From a virus (taxonomy: Duplodnaviria; Heunggongvirae; Uroviricota; Caudoviricetes): a stretch of DNA of 11,507 nucleotides. The notes beneath the pieces are model-generated. The model had not been told where the DNA came from. It saw only the letters and a program-made list of their open reading frames with translations, and did no database searches. Position 1 is the first letter of the stretch. The number at the start of each line of letters is the position of its first letter. Positions 1-11,507 of the stretch are shown here, piece after piece. The stretch lies in the IMG/VR virus record IMGVR_UViG_2740892442_000015; one strand, 5' to 3'. The position numbers and the translations under genes are program-made.

Positions 1-468
1 TTTTGAATATGGAAATAAATCAATTATATTGCCAATTATTCCATCTTTTTGACAAAAGAGAATTATTATTAGATAAATGAAAGTAAACGTAATAAATGAG
101 ATGAAAACTTTCATAAATGCCATAAAGTTATATTTTAACGTGGGCATCTGTGTTTTTTTATGTTGTATTGACATCATCTGAAGAAACATCTCGGGTTTGG
201 ATAGTGTTGCAAATATTGTGAAACCAGCAATGAGAAAACCTAAGGTTGTCACTGCAAAGTTAAAACCAATCAAAGCCCAGTTTCTAATGTCAGATACTAA
301 ATGAGACATATCCTTCTCAATAAAAAAAGAGTTTGTTAATAAAAAAATAGATGCTGTGAGCAAAATGCAAATATGGAATGTACTAATAGTAATCCGTTTG
401 CAGAGCAAGTAAACATCCCAAAGGTTTTTCTCTTTGGTTATTTCTTTAGCATCTATTTTATTTATCAT
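1..468 (-). CDS. Partial ORF (first 156 codons; C-terminus lies beyond window start) encoding a predicted multi-pass membrane protein; last gene of the repressor-linked operon
   Basis: My own translation of the minus strand from ATG 468-466 to position 1 is open for 156 codons with no stop (MINKIDAKEITKEKNLWDVYLLCKRITISTFHICILLTASIFLLTNSFFIEKDMSHLVSDIRNWALIGFNFAVTTLGFLIAGFTIFATLSKPEMFLQMMSIQHKKTQMPTLKYNFMAFMKVFISFITFTFIYLIIILFCQKDGIIGNIIDLFPYSK...). The start overlaps the TGA stop of the upstream gene (ATGA at 465-468). It has several long hydrophobic stretches. It is absent from the supplied ORF track, probably because it has no stop inside the window. In this very AT-rich DNA an open frame of this length is unlikely by chance. 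Confidence 0.6.
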   Translation of the reverse strand, partial: MINKIDAKEITKEKNLWDVYLLCKRITISTFHICILLTASIFLLTNSFFIEKDMSHLVSDIRNWALIGFNFAVTTLGFLIAGFTIFATLSKPEMFLQMMSIQHKKTQMPTLKYNFMAFMKVFISFITFTFIYLIIILFCQKDGIIGNIIDLFPYSK

Positions 469-1493
469 CGACCAAACCTTTCATATATATTGCTAATAAT
501 TCTAATCGTCTTTTGTGAAAGAGAACGGGGTAGAGATATCTTACCTTCTTCTACAAGATTTTCATACCGCTCATAACTTTCATTTGCAGCTACTACCGTA
601 TCCTTTGATAATTCATTCATCTCACTTAACAAAACAAAGTCATCATTGCTACCTTTGATTATATCACCATTGTCATCATATCCTTTAATATTTATTCCTG
701 AATTAGCCAATCTGGTTGCTGATGTGAGTTGTTCTAAAACAGCACCATGATTCAAGCCTGAATCGGTGTTTGAAAAGCGAATAGATGTAGAAATACTTCC
801 CATTTCGTCTCCGGCACTTTCAAGTGACTCCCAAAATTCGTCGTTATCAATTTCTTCTTGATTTGTAGGGAGAAGTTTTACTGAGACATTTTGGATTTTA
901 TTAAAATTATCAATAAATTGCTCTAGGCTTTGTTTGTCAGTTAACGGCGTTATTCTTAGCTTCGGGCGTTTGATTTCGTTCCGTAAGCTTTTTTTAGTGA
1001 CTCGAGGTAAGTCAGGGTTTTCTTTGCGTTCTTCTTGTGCGGTTTCGTATAAATGAGATATGTATTTTTCATATTCTATGTTTAAGAAACACTGACTTGT
1101 TGACTGAAAGTTTTGAATTGTGGGAGCACCACTAACTTCCTTGCAAAGAATTAATCTGTGAGTGTTTAATATTAGAAGAAAGAAAGAGCTCGGGGCTGTT
1201 TCAAGCTCTTTATGATCTTCAACCAGATCAGCACCATCAAATACTTGTTCTCTGGTTAATAATGTATTCTTAATAATCCGACCTTTAATTCCGAGTACTG
1301 GGGGTGTTGCTTCTTCGTCAAGTATGACGCATTCAGTATCAATGAAAAAGAACTCTGATTTGTCAGATATTCTGCGGATGTTTGCCATCTCCAAAAAAGA
1401 GGGGAAAACAATTTCATCATAATAGTCTAGCAAAACATCATCACCAAAACGGAGAGTATAATTTCCAAATTCGAGTTTTTTTATAAAATCCAT
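465..1493 (-). CDS. Hypothetical 342-aa protein, acidic and Ser/Asn-rich, no motif I recognise (no P-loop, no tyrosine-recombinase signature); middle gene of the repressor-linked operon
   Basis: ORF from the track. A GAGG Shine-Dalgarno sits about 8 nt upstream of the ATG at 1493. It lies 15 nt downstream of the repressor gene on the same strand, and its stop overlaps the start of the next ORF. Spot counts give roughly 30 percent GC, far below the tail genes. Confidence 0.8.
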   Translation of the reverse strand: MDFIKKLEFGNYTLRFGDDVLLDYYDEIVFPSFLEMANIRRISDKSEFFFIDTECVILDEEATPPVLGIKGRIIKNTLLTREQVFDGADLVEDHKELETAPSSFFLLILNTHRLILCKEVSGAPTIQNFQSTSQCFLNIEYEKYISHLYETAQEERKENPDLPRVTKKSLRNEIKRPKLRITPLTDKQSLEQFIDNFNKIQNVSVKLLPTNQEEIDNDEFWESLESAGDEMGSISTSIRFSNTDSGLNHGAVLEQLTSATRLANSGINIKGYDDNGDIIKGSNDDFVLLSEMNELSKDTVVAANESYERYENLVEEGKISLPRSLSQKTIRIISNIYERFGR

Positions 1494-1508
1494 TACTATG
1501 CCTCAAGA

Positions 1509-2387
1509 TTAAATAGTACGGTACTGTGAGAAAATTTTGGCAACTAATTTTATATCTTCTTTTTCACAATCAAATGTTAAATCATCGTCTGTTACTCGAA
1601 GATTGCCTCCAGGTAATAGAAAAATTTGTTTTAACTTGAAATTATTTTGGTATTGAACAATCCATCTTCCGTCTTCAACATTAGCTTTATTCATGTGTGC
1701 AATATTTATGCAATGTTCGTCTTCAATTGCGAGTAAATCATTAAAATGAGGAAGCAGGGACTTATCTATCAATAAATGACCAGCATCGAAAATTTGATTG
1801 TCAATAAGTTTTACTTTAGGAATTTCTAAAGCTTCACTTTCTTCGCTTCCAAGTTTTTGCCCGCGCCCAGTTGCTAACCATAAAAGAGAAGTTCTTGTTT
1901 CCAACGAGCATCTTATGATCCAGTCAGCTGGGAATGTGTCTCGCAAGTATCTATTCGCCATTGTGCTTTTAGACACATTCAAATGGTCGGCAAGTTCTTG
2001 TCTTGTTTTAAAGCCATACGCTTCCATTAGCCTGTTTATCGCATTACGTCCACCTGAATCCAGATTTGGATGGTTCACAATTGGGTTCTCGTTGGTGGTG
2101 GCTTTGGGAACATATTGAACCAATGATGCTGGTTCCTCTAATTTAGCGGGAACTTCGGTATTCTTAGGAAATGGCACGCCTTTTCCGAATGAGAGCCACT
2201 CTATAGATGCTCCTGTTTCAATTGCACACTGAATTACCCAGTCAGCAGGAAATGCGTCACGCATCCAGCGCGTTCCCATAGTACTTGCAGATACATTGAA
2301 CTGTTCACATAGGGCTTGCCGCGTCTTGAATCCATACGCTTCAAGCATGCGCGTTATGACTGCCTGTCCTCCGTTTTTGAAATTCAT
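1509..2387 (-). CDS. Phage CI-type repressor-like protein with two tandem N-terminal HTH domains (186 CI-like family) and a C-terminal LexA/S24-like domain that appears degenerate
   Basis: Residues about 8-70 (VITRMLEAYGFKTRQALCEQFNVSASTMGTRWMRDAFPADWVIQCAIETGASIEWLSFGKG) and about 115-177 (AINRLMEAYGFKTRQELADHLNVSKSTMANRYLRDTFPADWIIRCSLETRTSLLWLATGRG) are about 60 percent identical to each other and match my memory of the phage CI repressor HTH domain. The C-terminal part (GRWIVQYQNNFKLKQIFLLPGGNLRV) resembles the LexA/CI S24 fold, but I see no G-x-S-M motif. The gene is divergent from an Apl/Cro-like gene. Confidence 0.8.
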   Translation of the reverse strand: MNFKNGGQAVITRMLEAYGFKTRQALCEQFNVSASTMGTRWMRDAFPADWVIQCAIETGASIEWLSFGKGVPFPKNTEVPAKLEEPASLVQYVPKATTNENPIVNHPNLDSGGRNAINRLMEAYGFKTRQELADHLNVSKSTMANRYLRDTFPADWIIRCSLETRTSLLWLATGRGQKLGSEESEALEIPKVKLIDNQIFDAGHLLIDKSLLPHFNDLLAIEDEHCINIAHMNKANVEDGRWIVQYQNNFKLKQIFLLPGGNLRVTDDDLTFDCEKEDIKLVAKIFSQYRTI

Positions 2388-2512
2388 CTAGTACGCCTTT
2401 GAGTAATATTGAGTTGATACTTCTCAAATGAAGAATTAATGTGTGCGAAAGTGAACTTGACGGTGTTAATCACCAGTTACCACACATCATGTTAATCGAG
2501 GAATCTTGCATC
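2388..2512. promoter_or_regulatory. Divergent intergenic switch region between the repressor gene and the Apl/Cox-like gene; likely carries both promoters and operators
   Basis: 125-nt gap between divergent start codons. TTGACG at 2457-2462 is a -35-like hexamer. The 8-mer TGTTAATC occurs twice (2464-2471 and 2490-2497). GGTGTTAATCACC at 2462-2474 has inverted 4-bp arms. A further TTAAT lies in the gaattaatgtg stretch just upstream. Confidence 0.45.
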
Positions 2513-2734
2513 ATGACTCCACATATTTCAATCACCTTAGCTGTTCCATCTGTTTCTATTGAGAAATACAGCGAACTGACTGGCTTATCTATCGACACCA
2601 TCAATGACATGCTGGCTGATGGACGTCTTATTCGCCATCGTCTCCGTAAGGATAAAAAGCGAGAAAAGGTGATGATCAATATCGCAGCAATGACTGTTGA
2701 TGCACTCGCTGAATGCAATTTGAGCATTAACTAG
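2513..2734 (+). CDS. Small HTH DNA-binding protein, Apl/Cox/Cro-like (73 aa)
   Basis: First gene transcribed away from the repressor. ATG at 2513 gives MTPHISITLAVPSVSIEKYSELTGLSIDTINDMLADGRL..., which contains an HTH-like segment. The track ORF starts at 2441 from an upstream codon, so the exact start is uncertain (another in-frame ATG lies at 2489). Confidence 0.55.
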   Translation: MTPHISITLAVPSVSIEKYSELTGLSIDTINDMLADGRLIRHRLRKDKKREKVMINIAAMTVDALAECNLSIN

Positions 2735-2748
2735 TTCCATTTTGGGTT

Positions 2749-3276
2749 ATGTCAGAGATGTCGAATATGTTTGATTACCAAGTTTCCAAACATCCACATT
2801 TTGATGAAGCCTGTCGTGCATTCGCATTGCGCCACAACCTGGTGCAACTGGCAGAACGTGCTGGCATGAATGTGCAGATTCTGCGGAACAAGCTGAACCC
2901 AGCTCAACCTCATTTATTAACCGCACCAGAAATCTGGCTGCTTACCGATCTGACTGAAGATTCAACGCTGGTAGATGGTTTTCTGGCACAGATTCATTGT
3001 CTGCCATGTGTACCGATTAATGAGGTGGCAAAAGAGAAACTGCCACATTACGTCATGAGTGCAACCGCAGAGATCGGGCGTGTTGCTGCAGGTGCGGTAT
3101 CTGGCGATGTAAAAACCAGTGCCGGTCGTCGTGATGCCATCAGCAGCATTAATTCTGTAACACGACTGATGGCGCTGGCGGCTGTTTCATTGCAGGCCCG
3201 TTTACAGGCTAACCCTGCGATGGCGAGTGCAGTTGATACTGTGACTGGCCTCGGTGCTTCATTCGGTTTGCTGTGA
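2749..3276 (+). CDS. Phage regulatory protein CII-like (phage 186 CII / CP76 family)
   Basis: 175-aa ORF. Segments such as [23 protein letters not shown] and [28 protein letters not shown] match my memory of the 186 CII family. It sits directly after the Apl-like gene, as in phage 186. An alternative start at ATG 2767 (MFDYQ...) is possible. Confidence 0.75.
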
Positions 3277-3283
3277 GGTGCTT

Positions 3284-3580
3284 ATGCTGACGAAAGAACC
3301 ATCATTTGCATCGCTGCTGGTAAAACAAAGCCCGGCAATGCACTACGGTCACGGCTGGATCATGGGAGAGGATGGTAAACGCTGGCATCCATGTCATTCA
3401 CAAGATGAATTGCTGTCTGAATTGACCACGAGAAAATGGAGAAAGTCCAAATGTATGCGGCAGAAAGTGAAGTGGTTTATCAGTTTCGTTACAGAGGGGA
3501 GAGTTATTCAGTACCTGAAGATGATTTGCTCTGTTGCTATCCGTCGTTGTCGGGCGATGGTAGCTACTTTTTCACGCTAA
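3284..3580 (+). CDS. Hypothetical small protein (98 aa from ATG 3284); coding status uncertain
   Basis: ATG at 3284 is preceded by GAGGTG and lies 8 nt after the CII-like stop. The C-terminal half overlaps the next ORF in another frame and has odd composition (rich in W, C, R, K). Confidence 0.3.
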   Translation: MLTKEPSFASLLVKQSPAMHYGHGWIMGEDGKRWHPCHSQDELLSELTTRKWRKSKCMRQKVKWFISFVTEGRVIQYLKMICSVAIRRCRAMVATFSR

Positions 3581-3675
3581 AGGATGGAACCTTTATACGT
3601 GGTGAAAAAGTACAAGAAGTGATGCGTATAAAGACATCACCTCTTGAACGTTATCGGCGAAGTATTTATCGGTAA
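3436..3675 (+). CDS. Hypothetical small protein (79 aa, or 74 aa from ATG 3451)
   Basis: ORF from the track. GGAG at 3437-3440 precedes the ATG at 3451. Amino-acid composition is balanced. It occupies the position of the small fil/dhr-type genes after cII in 186-like phages, but I do not recognise the sequence. Confidence 0.45.
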   Translation: MEKVQMYAAESEVVYQFRYRGESYSVPEDDLLCCYPSLSGDGSYFFTLKDGTFIRGEKVQEVMRIKTSPLERYRRSIYR

Positions 3676-3914
3676 CGATCTATCAGTGTCTGTATCAGAT
3701 GAGTGAATTCTTGTTGTTTAACCGAACCTAAAGGAAGTTTGTTTAATTCTTCGCGGAGGAGCTCAAAAAATGCAGATTGATTTGCTGAGTCAGTTCGAAA
3801 TAAGGAGTGGATCAGACCTGAAACAAGAATTCGTTGAACAGCAACCTCATCGCGAAGACTGGAGATCTCGTTTTCAAGTTGCTCTAAACGCTCTCTTTCA
3901 ACCGGGTTCAACAT
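3666..3914 (-). CDS. Hypothetical 82-aa protein with a coiled-coil-like N-terminus
   Basis: ORF from the track. On the minus strand an AGGA Shine-Dalgarno lies about 7 nt upstream of the ATG at 3914. It is divergent from the 113-aa ORF and its 3' end overlaps the plus-strand ORF ending at 3675 by 10 nt. Confidence 0.5.
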   Translation of the reverse strand: MLNPVERERLEQLENEISSLRDEVAVQRILVSGLIHSLFRTDSANQSAFFELLREELNKLPLGSVKQQEFTHLIQTLIDRYR

Positions 3915-3995
3915 TGATGATTCCTTCTAGCTATCAATATGTTGGTAATGGATCATATCAAAAATTTTTTAGTAGATGTGTTGTGGGATGCATAA

Positions 3996-4337
3996 ATGGC
4001 TATTGAAGGCGCTGCGGCGACTGTTCCATTAAGTCCCGGTGAACGCCTGAATGGACTTAATCACATAGCGGAATTAAGGGCGAAAGTATTTGGCCTGAAT
4101 ATTGAGTCAGAGCTTGAGCGGTTTATTAAAGATATGCGTGATCCACGGGATATCAATAATGAACAAAATAAACGGGCACTGGCTGCCATATTCTTTATGG
4201 CAAAAATTCCAGCTGAACGTCATAGCATCAGCATTAATGAGCTGACCACTGACGAAAAGCGGGAGCTGATTAAAGCAATGAATCATTTTCGTGCAGTGGT
4301 GAGCTTATTTCCCAGACGGCTAACCATGCCGAATTAA
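3996..4337 (+). CDS. Hypothetical 113-aa phage protein; lies just upstream of the tape measure region but could not be confirmed as a tail assembly chaperone
   Basis: ORF from the track with a weak Shine-Dalgarno (GGGA). I found no open -1 or +1 frame extending it toward the tape measure start, so a canonical chaperone frameshift arrangement is not supported. Confidence 0.55.
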   Translation: MAIEGAAATVPLSPGERLNGLNHIAELRAKVFGLNIESELERFIKDMRDPRDINNEQNKRALAAIFFMAKIPAERHSISINELTTDEKRELIKAMNHFRAVVSLFPRRLTMPN

Positions 4338-4404
4338 CCAACTAATGAAATTAATGGCGTAAACCCGCCGGGCATCCCTTTATCTAAATTCAGGAGAATT
4401 GATT

Positions 4405-4638
4405 ATGCGTAATATTGAAATCCTCACGACTAAAACCGGACCGGATGACGCAGGGCTTAATATTTTACTGACAGAGGCTCGTCTGGAAGAACGTCGGGCA
4501 AGGGCTGAAGCAATGGCAGCTCGCCTTGATAGCCTGGCGTGTCATATCACATCCCGCCAGCTAAACCACGTCAAAGCGGCAGAACTGCTGCGTGTAACTG
4601 CTGAAGCAATCCAGAACGAAGCGCAGGAGATCCACTAA
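4405..4638 (+). CDS. 77-aa ORF with a strong ribosome-binding site, in the same frame as the tape measure ORF and separated from it by one TAA; possibly the N-terminal part of a disrupted tape measure gene
   Basis: AGGAG at 4393-4397 lies 7 nt upstream of ATG 4405 (the track starts at TTG 4399). The stop TAA at 4636-4638 is followed two codons later by the tape measure ORF start in the same frame (4645-4405 = 240, a multiple of 3). The protein is helical and Ala/Arg/Glu-rich. Confidence 0.5.
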   Translation: MRNIEILTTKTGPDDAGLNILLTEARLEERRARAEAMAARLDSLACHITSRQLNHVKAAELLRVTAEAIQNEAQEIH

Positions 4639-4644
4639 TGGCTG

Positions 4645-7011
4645 ATGCAATGGATCTCGTACACCCGCAATATTGAACAGCTCGGTGATGCGCTGAACTA
4701 TCTGGATGATAACGCCATGTCGAAAGGGGCAGACATCATTGATGTGATGCAACGTCTGGGCGGTGTGGCTGACCGTCTGGATTATCGTAAAGCGGCGGCG
4801 CTGGGTTCCACCTTCCTGACACTGGGCGCTGCGCCAGAGGTTGCAGCCAGTGCAGCAAACGCGATGGTGCGTGAATTGTCCATTGCCACCATGCAAAGCA
4901 AGAGTTTCTTTGAAGGGATGAATCTGCTGAAACTCAATCCTGAAGTGATTGAAAAGCAGATGACGAAGGATGCGATGGGAACTATCCAGCGTGTGCTGGA
5001 GAAGGTGAACGCACTGCCGCAGGACAAGCGTCTGTCTGCCATGACCATGTTGTTTGGTAAAGAGTTTGGCGATGACGCGGCGAAACTGGCAAACAACCTG
5101 CCGGAACTACAGCGCCAGCTAAAACTGACAGCGGGCAATGATGCGCTCGGTTCCATGCAGAAAGAATCCGACATCAACAAGGACTCACTTTCTGCTCAGT
5201 GGTTGCTGGTTAAAACCGGAGCGCAGAATACCTTCAGCAGCCTGGGCGAAACGCTGCGCCAGCCGCTGATGGATATTCTGTACACGGTGAAAAGCGTTAC
5301 GGGAGCGTTGCGTCGCTGGGTGGAAGCTAACCCGGAACTGACGGGCACACTGATGAAAGTAGCCGCTATTGTGGCTGCGGTTACCGTAGGCCTCGGCACC
5401 TTGGCTGTGGCGCTGGCTGCAGTGCTGGGGCCGCTGGCAGTCATCCGTCTGGGATTCTCTGTGCTGGGCATCAGAACGTTACCTTCCGTTACGGCAGCAG
5501 TAACACGAACCAGCAGCGCGTTGTCCTGGCTGGCTGGCGCACCACTGGCACTGCTGCGACACGGGCTTGCTTCATCGGGTAACGCAGCGGGTTTACTTAC
5601 TGCGCCGTTGTCGTCTTTGCGCCGTACGGCATCACTGACGGGAAATGTCCTGAAAACTGTTGCAGGTGCGCCGGTTGCACTTTTGCGGTCTGGATTATCC
5701 GGTTTACGTGCGGTTGCTGTGATGTTTATGAATCCTCTGGCGGTACTGCGCGGTGGACTGACCGCTGCAGGTACGGTGCTGCGAGTACTGGCATCTGGTC
5801 CACTGGCGATGCTGCGCGTTGCCCTGTATGCCATATCTGGTCTGTTAGGTGCTCTGCTCAGTCCGATAGGTCTAGTGGTTACTGCACTGGCAGGCGTGGC
5901 GCTGGTTGTCTGGAAATACTGGCAACCCATCACCGCATTTCTCGGTGGCGTGGTGGAGGGATTCAAAGCGGCGGCAGGTCCCGTCAGTGCCGCATTCGAA
6001 CCACTTAAGCCTGTGTTCCAGTGGATTGGCGACAAAGTGCAGGCGCTGTGGGGCTGGTTTACTGACCTGCTGACGCCCGTTAAGTCGACCTCTGCCGAAC
6101 TGCAGAGTGCAGCGGCAATGGGGCGACGATTCGGGGAGGCCCTGGCGGAAGGGCTGAATATGGTCATGCATCCGCTGGACTCCCTGAAATCCGGCGTTTC
6201 CTGGTTGCTGGAGAAACTCGGCATTGTCAGTAAAGAGGCCGCAAAGGCAAAACTACCGGAAAGCGTGACGCGTCAGCAACCTGCGACGGTGAATGCAGAC
6301 GGCAAAGTGATGATGCCATCGGGTGGTTTTCCATCATGGGGATATGGCTTTGCGGGGATGTATGACAGCGGCGGGTATATCCCGCGCGGGCAGTTTGGCA
6401 TCGTCGGTGAAAACGGGCCGGAAATTGTTAACGGCCCGGCAAATGTGACCAGCCGGAGAAATACAGCTGCACTGGCTGCCGTTGTTGCCGGAATGATGGG
6501 CGTTGCTGCCGCGCCAGCAGAGCTTCCACCGTTGCACCCTTTGGCACTTCCCGCGAAAGGTGGAGAAGCAATTGTGAGTCGCGCAGCCACTGTGCCGCTC
6601 GTTCAACGGATTGAGGCACCGACGCAGATCATCATTCAGACGCAGCCAGGACAAAGTGCGCAGGATATTGCGCGGGAGGTGGCACGCCAGCTTGATGAAC
6701 GTGAACGCAGGCTGAAGCAAAAGCCAGGAGTAACTACAGCGATCAGGGGGGATACGACGCATGATGATGGTGCTGGGATTGTACGTGTTTATGCTGCGCA
6801 CCGTTCCGTATCAGGAACTGCAGTATCAACGCAGCTGGCGACATGCGGCAAACAGTCGGGTAAACCGACGTCCGTCCACGCAGTTTCTGGGACCGGAAAA
6901 CGACATGCTGACGCTTTCCGGTGTTCTTATGCCGGAGATAACAGGCGGCAGGCTGTCGTTGCTGGCACTGGAGCAGATGGCAGAACAGGGGAAAGCATGG
7001 CCCCTGATTGA
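4645..7011 (+). CDS. T: Phage tail tape measure protein (P2 gpT-like); probably disrupted at both ends, since the 3' 250 nt of this ORF overlap gpU
   Basis: The N-terminal region (GADIIDVMQRLGGVADRLDYRKAAALGSTFLTLGAAPEVAASAANAMVRELS) matches my memory of the tape measure core motif. A central hydrophobic region carries repeated xPLAxLRxGL motifs. It sits immediately upstream of gpU and gpD. The ATG at 4645 has no Shine-Dalgarno within normal spacing. Translation past about 6760 looks like out-of-frame junk and overlaps the recognisable gpU frame. Confidence 0.85.
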   Translation: MQWISYTRNIEQLGDALNYLDDNAMSKGADIIDVMQRLGGVADRLDYRKAAALGSTFLTLGAAPEVAASAANAMVRELSIATMQSKSFFEGMNLLKLNPEVIEKQMTKDAMGTIQRVLEKVNALPQDKRLSAMTMLFGKEFGDDAAKLANNLPELQRQLKLTAGNDALGSMQKESDINKDSLSAQWLLVKTGAQNTFSSLGETLRQPLMDILYTVKSVTGALRRWVEANPELTGTLMKVAAIVAAVTVGLGTLAVALAAVLGPLAVIRLGFSVLGIRTLPSVTAAVTRTSSALSWLAGAPLALLRHGLASSGNAAGLLTAPLSSLRRTASLTGNVLKTVAGAPVALLRSGLSGLRAVAVMFMNPLAVLRGGLTAAGTVLRVLASGPLAMLRVALYAISGLLGALLSPIGLVVTALAGVALVVWKYWQPITAFLGGVVEGFKAAAGPVSAAFEPLKPVFQWIGDKVQALWGWFTDLLTPVKSTSAELQSAAAMGRRFGEALAEGLNMVMHPLDSLKSGVSWLLEKLGIVSKEAAKAKLPESVTRQQPATVNADGKVMMPSGGFPSWGYGFAGMYDSGGYIPRGQFGIVGENGPEIVNGPANVTSRRNTAALAAVVAGMMGVAAAPAELPPLHPLALPAKGGEAIVSRAATVPLVQRIEAPTQIIIQTQPGQSAQDIAREVARQLDERERRLKQKPGVTTAIRGDTTHDDGAGIVRVYAAHRSVSGTAVSTQLATCGKQSGKPTSVHAVSGTGKRHADAFRCSYAGDNRRQAVVAGTGADGRTGESMAPD
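5520..5880 (+). repeat. Degenerate in-frame tandem repeats inside the tape measure gene
   Basis: Peptide motifs APLALLRHGL, APLSSLRRT, APVALLRSGL, NPLAVLRGGL and GPLAMLRVAL recur at intervals of about 20-25 residues. The corresponding DNA segments (ccactggcactgctgcg, ccgttgtcgtctttgcg, ccggttgcacttttgcg, cctctggcggtactgcg, ccactggcgatgctgcg) repeat at a period of about 65 nt. Confidence 0.5.
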
Positions 7012-7246
7012 AGGCAGCGGCACGATTTACGGCATGTATGTGATTGAGGGACTGAATCAGACTAAAACGGAGTTTTTCCGCGACGGTATGCCGCGCCGGA
7101 TTGAGTTCACCCTGTCGCTCAAACGGGTGGATGAATCCCTGTCCGATATGTTCGGTGATCTCAGTGCGCAACTGAATAATCTGCAGGACACGGCAACGTC
7201 TGCCTTAAGTGATATCAGTAAAACGGTGGGAGGGCTGCTGTCGTGA
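6761..7246 (+). CDS. U: Phage tail protein U (P2 gpU-like), 161 aa
   Basis: ORF from the track starting MMMVLGLYVFMLRTVPYQELQYQRSWRH..., which I recognise as P2 gpU-like. Its length is close to P2 gpU, and its stop overlaps the gpD start (GTGA at 7243-7246). Confidence 0.9.
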   Translation: MMMVLGLYVFMLRTVPYQELQYQRSWRHAANSRVNRRPSTQFLGPENDMLTLSGVLMPEITGGRLSLLALEQMAEQGKAWPLIEGSGTIYGMYVIEGLNQTKTEFFRDGMPRRIEFTLSLKRVDESLSDMFGDLSAQLNNLQDTATSALSDISKTVGGLLS

Positions 7247-8343
7247 ATTTCAGCTCAGAACTGCTTAACAAAGGCAACAAAACTCCCGCATTCAGCATCA
7301 GTATTGAGGGCAGGGATATCACCACTGTGCTGGATAACCGCCTGATGAGTTTGACGCTGACGGATAACCGGGGCTTTGAAGCGGACCAGCTTGATCTGGA
7401 GCTGGATGACGCTGACGGAAAAATCGTGCTGCCGCGCCGTGGTGCGGTCATTACGCTGGCGCTGGGCTGGAAGGGGCAGCCGCTTTTCCCGAAAGGGGCA
7501 TTCACAGTGGACGAGATTGAACACACTGGCGCACCGGACCGCCTGACTATCCGGGCGCGAAGTGCTGATTTTCGGGAAACGCTGAATACCCGCCGTGAAA
7601 AATCGTGGCATAAGACCACCGTCGGGGAAGTGGTGAAGGAAATAGCCGCGCGGCACAAGCTGAAGATGGCACTGGGTAAAGACCTGTCGGATAAGCCCGT
7701 GGAGCATATAGACCAGACTAATGAGAGTGACGGCAGTTTTCTGATGCGGCTGGCGCGACAGTACGGTGCCATCGCGTCGGTGAAAAATGGCAATCTGTTA
7801 TTCATCAGGCAGGGGCAGGGCAAAAGCGCCACTGGTAAACCTCTGCCAGTGATCACTATCACACGCAAGGACGGCGACAGTCACCGATTTACCCTGGCAG
7901 ATCGCGGAGCCTACACGGGCGTAATTGCCAGCTGGTTGCATACCCGCGAACCTGCGAAGAAAGAAAGCACCACGGTGAAGCGTAAGCGCAGAACTAAGAA
8001 GCAGAAGAAAGAGCCGGAAGCGAAGCAGGGCGATTACCTGGTGGGTACGGATGAAAACGTGCTGGTACTTAATCGCACTTATGCCAACCGGAGCAACGCC
8101 GAACGAGCGGCGAAAATGCAGTGGGAACGCCTGCAACGCGGCGTTGCGTCATTCTCGCTACAACTGGCGGAAGGGCGGGCAGATCTCTACACGGAAATGC
8201 CAGTGAAAGTCAGTGGCTTTAAACAGCCGATAGATGATGCGGAATGGACTATTACCACCCTGACGCATACTGTCAGCCCGGATAACGGTTTTACGACCAG
8301 TCTGGAGCTTGAAGTGAAGATTGATGATTTCGAAATGGAATGA
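7243..8343 (+). CDS. D: Phage tail protein D (P2 gpD-like, late control D family), 366 aa
   Basis: ORF from the track with a GTG start overlapping the gpU stop. It holds the gpD position between U and ogr, as in P2, and the sequence matches my memory of the family. Confidence 0.9.
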   Translation: MNFSSELLNKGNKTPAFSISIEGRDITTVLDNRLMSLTLTDNRGFEADQLDLELDDADGKIVLPRRGAVITLALGWKGQPLFPKGAFTVDEIEHTGAPDRLTIRARSADFRETLNTRREKSWHKTTVGEVVKEIAARHKLKMALGKDLSDKPVEHIDQTNESDGSFLMRLARQYGAIASVKNGNLLFIRQGQGKSATGKPLPVITITRKDGDSHRFTLADRGAYTGVIASWLHTREPAKKESTTVKRKRRTKKQKKEPEAKQGDYLVGTDENVLVLNRTYANRSNAERAAKMQWERLQRGVASFSLQLAEGRADLYTEMPVKVSGFKQPIDDAEWTITTLTHTVSPDNGFTTSLELEVKIDDFEME

Positions 8344-8433
8344 TTCTTCGCAATGGAGAACTTTTAAGTTTTCAAAATGGAATAATGCGGTATCATTATT
8401 GTGAATTTAGCAAAAATGGGGAGAACTCGAAAA

Positions 8434-8652
8434 ATGATGATTTGCCCACTGTGTGGAAGTGCCGCCCATACTCGCAGCAGTTTTCAGGTATCTTCATTGA
8501 CCAAAGAGCGTTACAACCAGTGCCAGAACATTAACTGCAGCCATACTTTTGTTACTCATGAAACTTTTGTTCGTTCGATTGCAACGCCAAAAGAGTCAAA
8601 TCCGGTTCAGCCGCATCCAATGAAATCAGGACAGGTGGCGCTCTCTCTTTGA
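8434..8652 (+). CDS. ogr: Ogr-type zinc-finger late transcription activator (P2 Ogr / 186 B family), 72 aa
   Basis: MMICPLCGSAAHTRSS...NQCQNINCSHTF carries the C-x2-C...C-x4-C zinc-finger pattern and resembles P2 Ogr in length and sequence. It is the last phage gene before host DNA, as in integrated P2. The track ORF starts upstream at 8401 from an alternative start codon. Confidence 0.85.
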   Translation: MMICPLCGSAAHTRSSFQVSSLTKERYNQCQNINCSHTFVTHETFVRSIATPKESNPVQPHPMKSGQVALSL

Positions 8653-8732
8653 CGCTGCCGCCATTTTGTCGCCATCGTTAAAAAACAGTGCTTCTAACAT
8701 CATGATTTTAAAGAGCATAAATTTCAGGCAAC

Positions 8733-8775
8733 AAAAAACCCATCAACCTTGAACCGAAATGGCGGGGTTGATGGG
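8733..8775 (-). terminator. Rho-independent terminator candidate for minus-strand transcription, probably the ybjL terminator
   Basis: Perfect 10-bp inverted repeat CCCATCAACC (8739-8748) and GGTTGATGGG (8766-8775). On the minus strand the stem is followed directly by TTTTTT (complement of the A run at 8733-8738). The loop is long (17 nt), but its outer bases can partly pair. Confidence 0.5.
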
Positions 8776-8887
8776 CTCCACAAAATGGGGACATCAAAGA
8801 AAAGCAGTGGCACTAATTAAGACTGATGCCCTGCGGAAAAGTTCTGCGGTTGTGCAAAAAAATTTCATTTTCAGGGCAACTTCAGTT

Positions 8888-10573
8888 TTATCCTAATCCT
8901 GGCCATACCATGACGATGATTGTCCCTGCCAGCGTCAGCAGGACGTTGGCGATTGCATAGGTGCCCGCATAGCCCAGCGCCGGGATGTTACTGCGAGCTG
9001 TATCACTGATGATCTCCATTGCCGGCGCGCAGGTACGTGCGCCCATCATTGCGCCGAACAACAGCGCGCGGTTCATTCGCAATACATAAGCACCGAACAA
9101 GAAACAGATAACCACGGGCACCAGACTGACAATCAATCCGGCAATCAACATCTGACCGCCAATCGCGCCCAGGCCGTTATTAATACCGCTACCGGCGCTC
9201 AGACCAACGCCTGCCATAAACACCATCAAGCCGAACTCTTTCACCATGCTTAATGCACCCTGCGGAATGTAACCGAAGGTCGGGTGGTTAGCACGCATAA
9301 AGCCCAGCATAATTCCGGCGAATAACAACCCGGCAGCGTTCCCCATGCCGAAACTGAATGTGCTGAACTGGAAGGTGATCATCCCGATCATCAGCCCAAT
9401 AACAAAGAAGGCGCAGAATGCCAGCAGGTCAGTGACCTGGCTGTGAATCGAGATAAAGCCGATGCGATCGGCGATGGTTTTTACGCGGCGGGCATCGCCG
9501 CTGACTTGTAAAACGTCACCTTTGTTAAGCACGACGTTGTCATCTATCGGCATCTCAATCTGGCTACGAATGACGCGGTTAAGGAAGCAACCGTGATCGG
9601 TCAACTTCAGTTGTGCGAGACGTTTACCTACAGCGTTATGGTTTTTAACGACCACTTCTTCAGTGACGATACGCATGTCGAGAAGGTCACGATCGAAAAC
9701 TTCTTTACCGTTACGGAAGCTGGGATCGAGTCGGGCATGGGCGTCGGGATAGCCTACCAACGCTATTTCATCGCCCATTTGTAGCACGGCATCACCGTCT
9801 GGATTTGCCAGAATCCCGTTACGTCGAATACGTTCAATGTAGCAGCCGGTTTGTCGATAAATACCCAGTTCACGCAGATTTTTGCCGTCGGTCCAGGCCA
9901 CCAGTTCCGGGCCGACGCGATAGGCGCGGATCACCGGTAAATAAACCTTACGGTTGGCATCAGTGTCCAGGCCACGTTCGCGGGCGATTTGCTGGGCGCT
10001 GGTCTGTAAGTCCTGATGCTGCAATTTCGGCAAGTAACGCGCACCAACAATCAAACTCACCAGACCGATTAAATAGGTTAAGGCATACCCGAGGCTCAGA
10101 TTATCCAGTGCCAGTGAGAGCTGCCTGCTTTCCATGCCGGAATGACGCAGTGTATCGCCAGCACCGACCAGAACCGGTGTCGACGTCATAGAGCCTGCTA
10201 ACATACCGGCCGTCAGGCCAATATCCCAGCCAAACAGCTTACCTAACCCTAAGGCGATCACCAGCGCACTGCCAACCATCACCAGTGCTAACATTAGGTA
10301 ATTTTTCCCATCGCGAAAAAAAATGGAAAAAAAGTTCGGTCCGGCTTCGACCCCGACGCAGAAAATAAACAGCATAAAGCCAAGATTAAGCGCATCGGTG
10401 TTAATGCTGAAATGTTGTTGGCCTAATAACAGCGATACGACTAAAACGCCAATGGAATTACCCAGTTGGATCGAACCAAGTCGTAACTTTCCGAGACATA
10501 GCCCAAGCGCGAGGACCACAAATAATAACAGAATGTAATTCCCATTTAACAATTCGGCGACGTTTATATTCAC
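8888..10573 (-). CDS. ybjL: Putative transport protein YbjL (AAE-family membrane transporter with internal RCK/TrkA-C-like domains), 561 aa
   Basis: ORF from the track. The length and sequence ([25 protein letters not shown]...) match my memory of E. coli YbjL. Hydrophobic N- and C-terminal blocks flank a soluble central region. It is adjacent to ybjM and grxA, as in the E. coli chromosome. Confidence 0.93.
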
Positions 10574-10842
10574 GGAGGCTAACTTCTTGTTTACTAGTAA
10601 GCTGTTGAAAGAAATGGTAATTTACGATAATGTTTTTTACCAGAATTCAGGGCGCAGATTCATTCAGCGCACCTAAACGATAGTAAAGTAACAATATATT
10701 TTACTAGTGTAATCACATTAGGTATCAACGGCTATATGAATTGCGTTGGCCTATATTAGCATGGAATGCGAAGCGGCTTTATCTTACTGAACGCCACACT
10801 GGCGAAAAATGTGTTCGATAGACGCAGTGTCAGGAGGAACGA
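10574..10842. promoter_or_regulatory. Divergent ybjL / ybjM promoter region
   Basis: 269-nt AT-rich gap between divergent start codons. The motif TACTAGT occurs twice (10595-10601 and 10702-10708). AGGAGG lies about 8 nt upstream of the ybjM GTG start. Confidence 0.4.
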
Positions 10843-11220
10843 GTGAAACATAAACAACGTTGGGCGGGGGCAATCTGCTGTTTTGTCCTCTTCATTGTGG
10901 TGTGCCTTTTTCTGGCGACGCACATGAAAGGCGCTTTTCGGGCTGCCGGGCATCCTGAAATCGGCTTGCTATTTTTCATTCTTCCTGGAGCAGTCGCCAG
11001 CTTCTTTTCACAGCGTAGAGAAGTCCTGAAACCTCTGTTTGGCGCAATGCTGGCGGCACCCTGTTCGATGCTCATTATGCGGCTGTTTTTTTCACCGACG
11101 CGCTCATTCTGGCAAGAGCTGGCATGGTTACTAAGCGCGGTGTTCTGGTGTGCGCTGGGGGCACTGTGTTTCTTATTTATCAGTAGTTTGTTTAAACCAC
11201 AGCACAGAAAAAATCAGTAA
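10843..11220 (+). CDS. ybjM: Inner membrane protein YbjM, 125 aa
   Basis: ORF from the track with a GTG start and a strong upstream AGGAGG. The protein is hydrophobic. Its position between ybjL and grxA matches the E. coli gene order. Confidence 0.85.
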   Translation: MKHKQRWAGAICCFVLFIVVCLFLATHMKGAFRAAGHPEIGLLFFILPGAVASFFSQRREVLKPLFGAMLAAPCSMLIMRLFFSPTRSFWQELAWLLSAVFWCALGALCFLFISSLFKPQHRKNQ

Positions 11221-11240
11221 AGCCCTCAACGCGAGGGCTT
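11220..11240 (-). terminator. GC-rich hairpin between convergent ybjM and grxA; likely the grxA terminator
   Basis: AAGCCCTC aacgc GAGGGCTT forms an 8-bp stem with a 5-nt loop. On the minus strand it is followed within about 7 nt by TTTTTT. On the plus strand no U-run follows, so it is a poorer terminator for ybjM. Confidence 0.4.
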
Positions 11241-11249
11241 GTCAGACGA

Positions 11250-11507
11250 TCAGGCGTCCAGATTTTCTTTCACCCATGCAGCAAAATCGGTATAGCCGCC
11301 GATATGTTGCTGATCGACAAAAATCTGCGGCACGGTTTCTACGGGTTTACCTGCCTTTTGTTGTAGATCTTCTTTAGTGATCCCTTCCGCACGAATATCT
11401 ACATACTGATACTGAAAATCATCGCGTTCATTGCTCAATTTCTCAGCCAGATCTTTTGCACGCACACAGTAAGGGCAACCCGAACGACCAAAAATAACGG
11501 TTTGCAT
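11250..11507 (-). CDS. grxA: Glutaredoxin 1 (complete; start codon is at the last bases of the window)
   Basis: 85-aa ORF MQTVIFGRSGCPYCVRAKDLAEKL... with the CPYC active site. It matches my memory of E. coli GrxA in length and sequence. Confidence 0.95.
   Translation of the reverse strand: MQTVIFGRSGCPYCVRAKDLAEKLSNERDDFQYQYVDIRAEGITKEDLQQKAGKPVETVPQIFVDQQHIGGYTDFAAWVKENLDA

Follow-up and report, generated by a model that had tools for sequence, protein, structure and literature searches.

A defective P2/186-family prophage in Escherichia coli rybB, very probably the product of one internal microhomology deletion

We analysed a stretch of 11,507 nucleotides (the window) from the IMG/VR virus record IMGVR_UViG_2740892442_000015, which shows two differences from NZ_CP135658.1, the chromosome of Escherichia coli TUM10008. 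The gene order in that chromosome is rcdA, int, cargo, CI through Ogr, and ybjL, and a prophage remnant of ∼10.2 kb occupies the rybB 3′ end, with rcdA and ybjL on either side; E. coli K-12 has the unoccupied site rcdA-rybB-ybjL. The element extends rightward to an att core at 8730-8743, and a match to Klebsiella phage KP12 stops at 8743. Leftward it runs past the window to an integrase gene and attL. Its features are as follows, in window coordinates except where L001 is named:

L001 13557-13570, left of the window: attL core, second copy of the 14-bp repeat
L001 13645-14697, left of the window: tyrosine integrase (Int_N and Phage_integrase domains)
1-468, minus strand: membrane-protein gene, 226 aa, first 156 codons in the window (PGAP WP_000608638.1; L001 14788-15468)
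465-1493, minus strand: gene for a RexA-like 342-aa protein, cargo between cI and int
1509-2387, minus strand: CI immunity repressor, 186 type (Pfam: Phage_CI_repr twice, and Phage_CI_C)
2388-2512, no strand: presumed switch region with pR/pL-type promoters and operators, from its position between the divergent cI and apl
2513-2734, plus strand: Apl/Cox-like excisionase and repressor (phrog_575, E 1.6e-28)
2767-3276, plus strand: CII-like lysogeny activator (PF06892, E 3e-42; 69% identical to 186 CII)
3284-3580, plus strand: Fil-like cell division inhibitor, 98-aa variant (PF10893, phrog_32377)
3666-3914, minus strand: small gene, 82 aa (phrog_26925)
3996-4337, plus strand: DUF5347 early gene (PF17282, E 4e-33)
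4405-4638, plus strand: DUF2732 early gene (PF10809, E 5e-28; its homologue is the 186 gene at 24433-24666)
4638-4663, plus strand: stump of a TraR/DksA-like zinc-finger gene, 8 codons and 2 nt, by alignment to intact alleles
4662-4663: deletion junction, a 2-bp microhomology (CA) common to both parents
4663-6764, plus strand: truncated tape measure gene T, codons 326-1025 (PhageMin_Tail match from profile position 74 of 201)
6761-7246, plus strand: gpU tail protein (PF06995, E 3e-44)
7243-8343, plus strand: gpD, baseplate hub/late control D (PF05954)
8369-8396, plus strand: weak promoter-like site upstream of ogr (9 of 12 in a consensus scan; site count no higher than the chance expectation)
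8434-8652, plus strand: Ogr/Delta-type zinc-finger late activator (PF04606, NF007241)
8730-8743, no strand: attR core AACAAAAAACCCAT, the last 14 nt of rybB (direct repeat search)
8730-8808, minus strand: host small-RNA gene rybB, full length, serving as attB (Rfam RF00110, 105 bits, model 1-79 of 79)

The immunity and lysogeny genes are of the 186 type: in tblastn searches CI, CII and Fil matched phage 186 and not P2. Pfam and PHROG assignments give a divergent layout, with CI (Phage_CI_repr/Phage_CI_C) opposite the Cox/Apl-like gene and CII and Fil following the latter, and the spacer at 2388-2512 sits where pR and pL lie in phage 186. The CI gene ends just left of 2388, the start of the interval described in an earlier sequence-only reading of this DNA. 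Its N-terminal HTH domain is duplicated, the two copies being 55% identical to each other, and intact prophages carry the identical protein (WP_001009712.1). A terminator-like hairpin at 3613-3646 belongs to the 82-aa minus-strand gene, which is also found at the equivalent place in the intact KS-NP019 prophage; gene and hairpin together (3613-3914) are a native variable module of the early region. The last whole gene left of the junction is that of DUF2732. Because window positions 1-4663 are gaplessly collinear with KS-NP019, the ORFs at 3284-4638 (Fil, the 82-aa gene, DUF5347 and DUF2732) are ordinary genes of the early operon, native to it; they are neither debris of the junction nor late genes, the latter being a case that the sequence-only reading had named as a refutation.

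Distally the order is T-U-D, then the Ogr/B zinc-finger activator adjoining the att site. T lacks the first 325 of its 1025 codons, and PGAP calls it a pseudogene ‘missing N-terminus’. The retained arm has one mismatch in 2037 nt to the 20A24 T gene (window 4664-6700), and the gpU and gpD proteins are both identical to their 20A24 counterparts. Ogr, whose start is most likely 8434 rather than 8401, is 54-55% identical to P2 Ogr and 186 B. The promoter-like site at 8369-8396 coincides in position with the P2 ogr promoter and 186 pB, and it is ranked as weak because the scan gave no more sites than chance. No CI operator motif common to the cI-apl switch region and the D-ogr spacer was found (no shared words of at least 7 bp, with 2.1 shared 7-mers expected). 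The integrase, attL and attR, CI, Apl, CII, U, D and Ogr all look intact.

These assignments, made with Pfam, PHROG and the ORFs, bear out the order given by the sequence-only reading (CI-like, Apl-like, CII-like, small ORFs, tape measure, gpU, gpD, Ogr), as well as its view of the element as a derivative of a 186-type prophage with an intact-looking CI repressor and Ogr late activator. The integrase and attL that it proposed to look for were both found just left of the window. Its term ‘mosaic’ adds nothing, as intact relatives and phage 186 itself pair the same immunity region with T-U-D-Ogr.

Downstream of cI in the lysogenic operon lies a RexA/RexB-like gene pair. The 342-aa cytoplasmic cargo protein has a RexA fold at ∼12% identity to RexA, and its 226-aa partner has four hydrophobic segments by hydropathy; the partner gene extends left of the window, with the integrase gene next. 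The pair resembles lambda RexA/RexB and the RexAB-type PP_5643/PP_5644 from a cryptic prophage in Pseudomonas putida (PMC11077077, PMC12894663): a RexA-fold cytoplasmic protein comes first, then a putative four-TM membrane protein, directly downstream of the repressor gene. It differs in having no sequence-level match to Pfam families and in the length of the partner, 226 aa against 144 aa for RexB. Neither cargo gene had a match in Pfam, PHROGs, PADLOC, NCBIfam or PDB sequences, and relatives of these genes give a weak DUF4747 signal. In Vibrio, Pseudomonas and Serratia, too, the 226-aa gene immediately follows the 342-aa gene. TUM10008 carries a natural nonsense allele, G920A, in the pair.

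The junction can be read to the base because both parental arms persist in intact sister prophages at the same site. KS-NP019, the closest to the left arm, is 99.83% identical over window 1-4663 without gaps, and 20A24, the closest to the right arm, is 99.93% identical over window 4662-11507; the left parent is matched through 4663 and the right parent from 4662. We aligned the intact TraR/DksA-like alleles of EC05, AHB21 and KS-NP019 (the full gene in 20A24 is PF01258): the junction leaves the TraR/DksA-like gene at codon 8-9 and enters the tape measure gene, 1025 codons long, at codon 326. It interrupts both genes internally without keeping the reading frame, and the TraR frame ends at a stop at codon 13. 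The sister prophages imply one internal deletion of 22.5-25.7 kb; since no single sequenced prophage parents both arms, this length is given as a range and the true parent is one that we infer. Among 5,426 complete E. coli genomes the junction is spanned only in TUM10008.

The sequence-only reading had placed the junction between about 3676 and 4400; base-level alignment moves it to 4662-4663. Our results agree with its claim that nothing remains of what lay between the early operon and the tape measure gene, and its direct joining of early genes to distal tail genes stands, although the tape measure gene was not kept whole, the deletion having cut T.

The deleted segment held the remainder of TraR, Dam methylase, replication gene A with ori, an operon of a LexA-box-controlled small ORF (62 aa) and a DinI/Tum-like gene, a cargo hotspot, cos, the portal, terminase, scaffold, capsid, lysis, baseplate, fibre, sheath, tube and E/E′ genes, and T codons 1-325. 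No replication, capsid, lysis, baseplate, fibre, sheath or tube genes lie between the early and the tail genes, and the window as a whole has no portal, terminase, scaffold, capsid, lysis, baseplate, fibre, sheath or tube gene and no cos-like site. Replication endonuclease A with ori is absent from attL to attR; in intact relatives it lies inside the deleted span. The same span in the intact phage includes a LexA box (CTGTAAATATAAACAG) that precedes the 62-aa ORF and the DinI-like gene. Between the DinI-like protein and the C-terminal half of 186 Tum the identity is 41%; the 62-aa ORF has no similarity to the N-terminal half of Tum and could, judging by its position, encode an antirepressor.

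The closest known elements are the rybB prophages of the Felsduovirus (Fels-2-like) type, which share the attachment site and are likened to the remnant by site and gene order; among 62 hits of a phage search, one record was named Felsduovirus and eight were Salmonella phages. Related prophages are present in roughly 1,300 complete E. coli genomes. The intact 20A24 and KS-NP019 prophages are ∼35 kb long with the gene order of the remnant, and intact rybB prophages have variable cargo between int and cI and also after gene A; in comparison the present copy is without the central 22-26 kb. Coliphage 186 (Eganvirus ev186, NC_001317) shares int, cI, apl, cII, fil, DUF2732 and the DksA-like zinc finger, together with the distal end G(T), F(U), D, B(Ogr) and attP, and both it and the intact relatives have an SOS operon with a DinI/Tum-like protein. 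The differences are that the proteins are only 29-69% identical, that the present CI has two HTH domains, that the cargo is not the same, and that 186 integrates in a tRNA-Ile gene (ileY in its record) whereas the present element is in rybB. Other remnants (G3/10, WCHEC050613, EC05, HL15, EC71, AHB21, 730V1, C21 and MB19) have also kept int, repressor and cargo at one end and D-ogr at the other, but have individual breakpoints, some of them IS-associated, where the present one has a single clean microhomology junction. The ogrK-yegZ remnant of E. coli K-12 is another defective P2-like prophage. The rybB site is a known E. coli defence hotspot (#29) held by Felsduovirus prophages (Hochhauser et al. 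2023, PMC10121019), the Klebsiella island Kpn38RybB is a rybB-integrated counterpart (PMC4048246), and defective P2 elements retaining near-identical defence genes have been described (bioRxiv 10.64898/2026.02.27.708500).

We conclude with high confidence that this is a defective P2/186-family prophage in rybB that lost its central ∼22-26 kb through one microhomology deletion. In the history we propose, a Fels-2/186-like temperate phage (Peduoviridae) would have entered the 3′ end of rybB by its tyrosine integrase, duplicating the 14-bp core; one illegitimate recombination at CA would then have fused TraR codon 8-9 to T codon 326, with loss of ∼22.5-25.7 kb. The event is recent, to judge by arms that still match intact prophages at 99.8-99.9% identity and by a junction found in one of the 5,426 genomes and in one IMG/VR contig.

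Deletion endpoints are reused across independent remnants. Of 36 endpoints in 10 remnants, 6 coincide to within 8 bp between strains whose partners differ, against 0.31 expected, and none of 20,000 simulations reached 6 coincidences, under a null model that is uniform and ignores sequence preferences. At the present left breakpoint, G3/10 and a metagenome contig (L045) break in the same CA and are there joined to an inverted capsid-gene fragment.

A hot spot or a two-step origin is the alternative to be weighed most seriously, though we think it doubtful: breakage or stalling would recur at TraR codon 8-9, or a G3/10-type ancestor would have suffered a second deletion. A random illegitimate event does not predict a left breakpoint nucleotide shared with the independent G3/10 remnant, and a modest hairpin (GAGATCCA/TGGATCTC) ends 5 nt ahead of the junction site, though with a z-score of about -2 only. 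A G3/10-type remnant is unlikely as the ancestor because the T arm of the window differs from G3/10 at 86 of 2037 sites and from 20A24 at 1 of 2037. Nor did exact-pattern scans for the TraR codon 8-9 breakpoint yield a third partner for the left end: IMG/VR gave the window-type junction and intact alleles, GTDB genomes only chance hits in unrelated taxa, and JGI metagenomes one G3/10-type contig and chance hits. Either origin gives the same deletion remnant as its end product. Two specific agents were considered and rejected: deletion by an invertase acting at quasi-sites, since the junction sites do not look like the crossover sites native to the phage (TTCTCGCATACC-TT-GGTTTGGGAGAAG), and A-protein nicking at ori-like sites, the P2/186 ori core (CTCGGAGTYCTGTCAATAACTGT) not being found at the hot spots.

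The other explanations are each very improbable. Were the element a naturally small functional one, such as a P2-like phage satellite or hitch-hiker or a tailocin-like cluster, its retention of int, att sites, excisionase, repressor and Ogr would fit, and P4-type satellites likewise use Delta/Ogr-type activators. Such an element is hardly expected to have its junction genes cut mid-gene and fused out of frame, arms nearly identical to those of intact 35-kb prophages, no cos-like site or replication gene, and a junction in a single genome lineage; the tail remainder, moreover, is T′, U and D only, without sheath, tube or baseplate. An assembly artefact, in which a chimeric contig collapsed a full prophage, gains a little from a 1-nt frameshifting deletion in T at 6716; this is private to the window, the two nearest public copies lacking it, and suggests some error in the source sequence. 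The same junction, however, is present both in the closed RefSeq chromosome and in an IMG/VR contig (L032) whose independence is assumed. Rearrangement, with relocation of the structural and replication genes to another part of the genome, had been set against deletion by the sequence-only reading, and deletion is upheld: the attL-to-attR interval has early and distal tail genes only, the whole window and the junction query each match the TUM10008 chromosome once, and a chimeric query built from the junction and seven probes of 120 bp taken from the deleted span (A, Q, P, N, J, FI and the 5′ end of T) hit that chromosome in one place, the junction, with no second match for the probes.

As to the functional state of the deletion remnant, we infer from its gene content that it can no longer replicate, be packaged or form particles, and SOS inducibility has probably been lost. 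CI would still silence the early promoter and should protect against phages that share its immunity type. Expression of the lysogenic operon (cI, the RexA-like gene, the gene of its putative 4-TM partner and int) probably continues and may keep other phages out. If the remnant were derepressed, Int and Apl could excise it as a non-replicating circle, and, the late promoter of T′, U and D having been lost, these genes would be transcribed from the early promoter.

This is thus an ordinary defective prophage of a known kind, already annotated as such at RefSeq. IMG/VR lists the element as a viral contig, yet it is a non-viable phage; for annotation, its borders are the rybB att cores, and the host genes ybjL, ybjM and grxA lie outside it. 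Internal deletions are a common state of defective P2-like prophages, and the significance of the present remnant is small in itself; it is a clean, datable example, and its practical use lies in annotation. More tentatively still than for the hot-spot or two-step origin, the deletion might be one case of a recurrent, site-preferring grounding of rybB-type P2/186-like prophages that spares the lysogenic operon and its RexAB-like cargo. If true, this would point to fixed sites of breakage or template switching, for example forks stalled at hairpins or a site-specific nick. The RexAB-like pair and the reuse of endpoints could merit a dedicated survey.

As the sequence-only reading held, the window carries a deleted, cryptic prophage remnant, borne out by comparison with intact relatives. 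Intact prophages occupy the same chromosomal site in two complete E. coli genomes, 20A24 and KS-NP019. The CI, 226-aa, 342-aa, U, D and Ogr proteins of 20A24 are the same as those of the remnant, and between their genes lies a full replication, head, lysis and tail gene set. Window 4662-11507 matches 20A24 at 99.93%, and window 1-4663 matches KS-NP019, whose early region has the same protein accessions as that of TUM10008, gaplessly at 99.83%. All window DNA to 4663, including a variable module at 3416-3993, is thus native early-operon DNA.

The left-hand parent has the sequence ...ATGGATCTCGTACA/GCAGCGC, which covers codons 1-9 of a TraR/DksA-type zinc-finger gene; this gene starts at an ATG that overlaps the stop codon of DUF2732. 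The sequence of the right-hand parent, within the tape measure gene, is ...AAAATCCCCA/CCCGCAAT, and that of the window is ...CTCGTACACCCGCAAT. Compared, these place the crossover within the dinucleotide CA at 4662-4663, several hundred bases from the interval first proposed (3676-4400). Measured on 20A24 the deletion spans 25,727 bp, and measured on KS-NP019 22,487 bp; it took away the first 325 of 1025 tape measure codons. Past the junction the TraR reading frame meets a stop codon after 12 codons; an ATG that falls in frame at 4645 is there by chance.

The missing genes might instead have been rearranged to another part of the chromosome. To examine this, the junction was joined with seven 120-bp probes, drawn from A, Q, P, N, J, FI and the 5' part of T in the deleted span, into one query. 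On the TUM10008 chromosome this query hit the junction and no other place, which argues strongly for deletion. In a set of 5,426 complete E. coli genomes TUM10008 alone spans the junction; one contig of the viral contig collection IMG/VR has it too, which speaks against an assembly artefact.

The window is Escherichia coli DNA: all of it aligns with strain TUM10008 (NZ_CP135658.1, 4454108-4465615), and the two differ only by G/A at 920 and by a deletion of 1 nt at 6716. The TUM10008 gene order is rcdA, integrase, the 226-aa gene, the 342-aa gene, CI, the remaining remnant genes, ybjL, ybjM and grxA. The contig IMGVR_UViG_3300028952_000017 matches the window from position 1357 of the contig onward, bar the deletion at 6716. 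It is cut at the integrase stop codon and presents the remnant plus host rybB, ybjL, ybjM and grxA as viral; its boundaries and ‘virus’ label are both misleading. At 6716 the window has G where both TUM10008 and this contig have GG, so that the last ~16 codons of the tape measure remnant are frameshifted and its ORF now runs to 7011, past the gpU start; an error in the sequencing of its source is a possible cause. At 920 the window, the contig and 20A24 have G; the A of TUM10008 makes a stop codon, and the 342-aa, RexA-like gene is there annotated as two ORFs.

Genes of the remnant, with families assigned by Pfam and PHROG searches
1509-2387, minus strand: CI, two Phage_CI_repr domains and Phage_CI_C
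2513-2734, plus strand: Cox/Apl-like excisionase, phrog_575
2767-3276, plus strand: CII, PF06892
3284-3580, plus strand: Fil, PF10893
3666-3914, minus strand: 82-aa gene, phrog_26925, with a terminator-like hairpin at 3613-3646
3996-4337, plus strand: DUF5347, PF17282
4405-4638, plus strand: DUF2732, PF10809
from 4663, plus strand: tape measure remnant, PhageMin_Tail match beginning at profile position 74 of 201
6761-7246, plus strand: GpU, PF06995
7243-8343, plus strand: GpD, PF05954
8434-8652, plus strand: Ogr, PF04606

These searches confirm the gene order first described; the genes at 3284-4638, which might have been late genes, are recognisable early genes. CI, CII and Fil match phage 186 and not P2, and U, D and Ogr are ~50% identical to both alike, so that the element is accurately described as having distal tail genes behind a 186-like immunity region. 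The earlier account needs correcting in its junction position, the status of its small ORFs and the word ‘mosaic’.

In CI a pair of HTH domains, sharing 55% identity, stands in tandem ahead of the usual C-terminal domain. The protein measures 292 aa, against 192 aa for that of 186 and 189-198 aa for the remaining prophage CIs in the comparison; the intact prophages have the same two-HTH protein. In strain AHB21 a 307-aa relative (L008 2353-3276) adjoins a KAP NTPase. The module at 3416-3993, between fil and DUF5347, comprises a longer Fil C-terminus and the 82-aa gene with its hairpin; it is present in KS-NP019 and absent from 20A24, and window 2600-4660, module included, occurs undivided in 508 complete genomes.

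The 14-bp sequence AACAAAAAACCCAT occurs as a direct repeat, 17 nt past rcdA (TUM10008 locus L001, 13557) and at window 8730-8743, giving a remnant of ~10.2 kb core to core. A full-length RybB small-RNA gene occupies 8730-8808 on the minus strand (Rfam, 105 bits); the repeat is its last 14 nt, so the att core is the 3' end of rybB, a sigma-E-dependent sRNA gene. K-12 has the empty arrangement rcdA-rybB-ybjL. The site has been described as a hotspot: in 109 E. coli genomes it is occupied, by Felsduovirus prophages alone (PMC10121019). RybB is also occupied by a Klebsiella island (PMC4048246).

Related prophages in many other strains have differing internal deletions. Ten remnants placed on the 20A24 prophage gave 36 endpoints, six of them coincident within 8 bp between strains, with a different partner each time.

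Coincident endpoints (20A24 coordinates)
6592: window and G3/10, at the same CA dinucleotide
5576/5580: EC71 and HL15
8946: EC05 and MB19
21066/21074: EC05 and EC71
31283/31289: MB19 and EC71
24094/24095: AHB21 and C21

In the individual loci they fall at window 4662-4663, L003 5632, L005 7969, L006 4616, L007 4605 and 8235, L008 7097, L073 15444 and L075 16435. The window T arm differs from 20A24 at 1 of 2037 sites and from G3/10 at 86, so the window and G3/10 deletions are independent events. A uniform null predicts 0.31 coincidences, and in 20,000 simulations six were never reached; since this null is crude and the remnant sample non-random, endpoint reuse is a lead, not a result. Invertase quasi-sites and A-protein ori-like sites were rejected as its cause. 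The TraR breakpoint lies 5 nt beyond the end of a modest hairpin.

The remnant is without gene A and its ori, nearly all morphogenetic genes and cos (no cos-like sequence was found in the window), from which we infer that it could not replicate, be packaged or form particles. In the intact relatives a strong LexA box, CTGTAAATATAAACAG (14/16 matches), precedes a 62-aa ORF and a DinI-like gene, which shows 41% identity to the C-terminal half of Tum, the antirepressor of 186. Because this operon falls in the deleted span, the remnant has probably lost SOS induction. Intact 20A24 also has a LexA-box-like sequence, CTGTTTTTTTATACAG (13/16 matches), a short way upstream of int (L002 2206); it falls between int and the 226-aa gene, in the part left of the window. 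The components that are intact are CI, Apl, CII, Int, both att cores, U, D and Ogr, which match their counterparts in viable-looking prophages exactly or almost exactly; homoimmune exclusion, and residual excision if the element were derepressed, are plausible on this gene content. A comparison bearing on CI control of ogr found no motif shared by the switch and ogr promoter regions.

Searches of Pfam, PHROGs, PADLOC, NCBIfam and PDB sequences matched neither of the two cargo genes between cI and int. Across Gammaproteobacteria the 342-aa protein has 167 homologues, all unnamed, and its gene is followed by a 203-217-aa partner in all three other contexts examined: a Vibrio island, adjoining DruA; a locus close to HigB in Pseudomonas; and a P2-like prophage of Serratia, where the pair once more occupies the cI-int interval. 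The partner here, of 226 aa, has four hydrophobic segments, and the layout of cI, RexA-like gene and membrane-protein gene matches cI-rexA-rexB of lambda. It is also similar to a RexAB-type pair carried by a cryptic prophage of Pseudomonas putida, for which defence of this host was recently shown (PMC12894663). Sister prophages carry differing cargo at two spots (L002 11645-13693; L072 11424-12485; L005 1627-3303; L007 1594-3327; L008 810-2327): retron St85 or a PIN-domain protein after gene A, and a SNIPE-associated protein, DUF4276 plus AAA ATPase, or a KAP NTPase between int and cI, in agreement with published P2 defence hotspots.

As a defective prophage the element is ordinary, its family and its site both being known, and the truncation of its tape measure gene is already annotated in RefSeq. 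Defective P2 elements are reported in a recent preprint to keep near-identical defence genes (10.64898/2026.02.27.708500), which fits this remnant, though the RexA-like gene of TUM10008 has a nonsense mutation.
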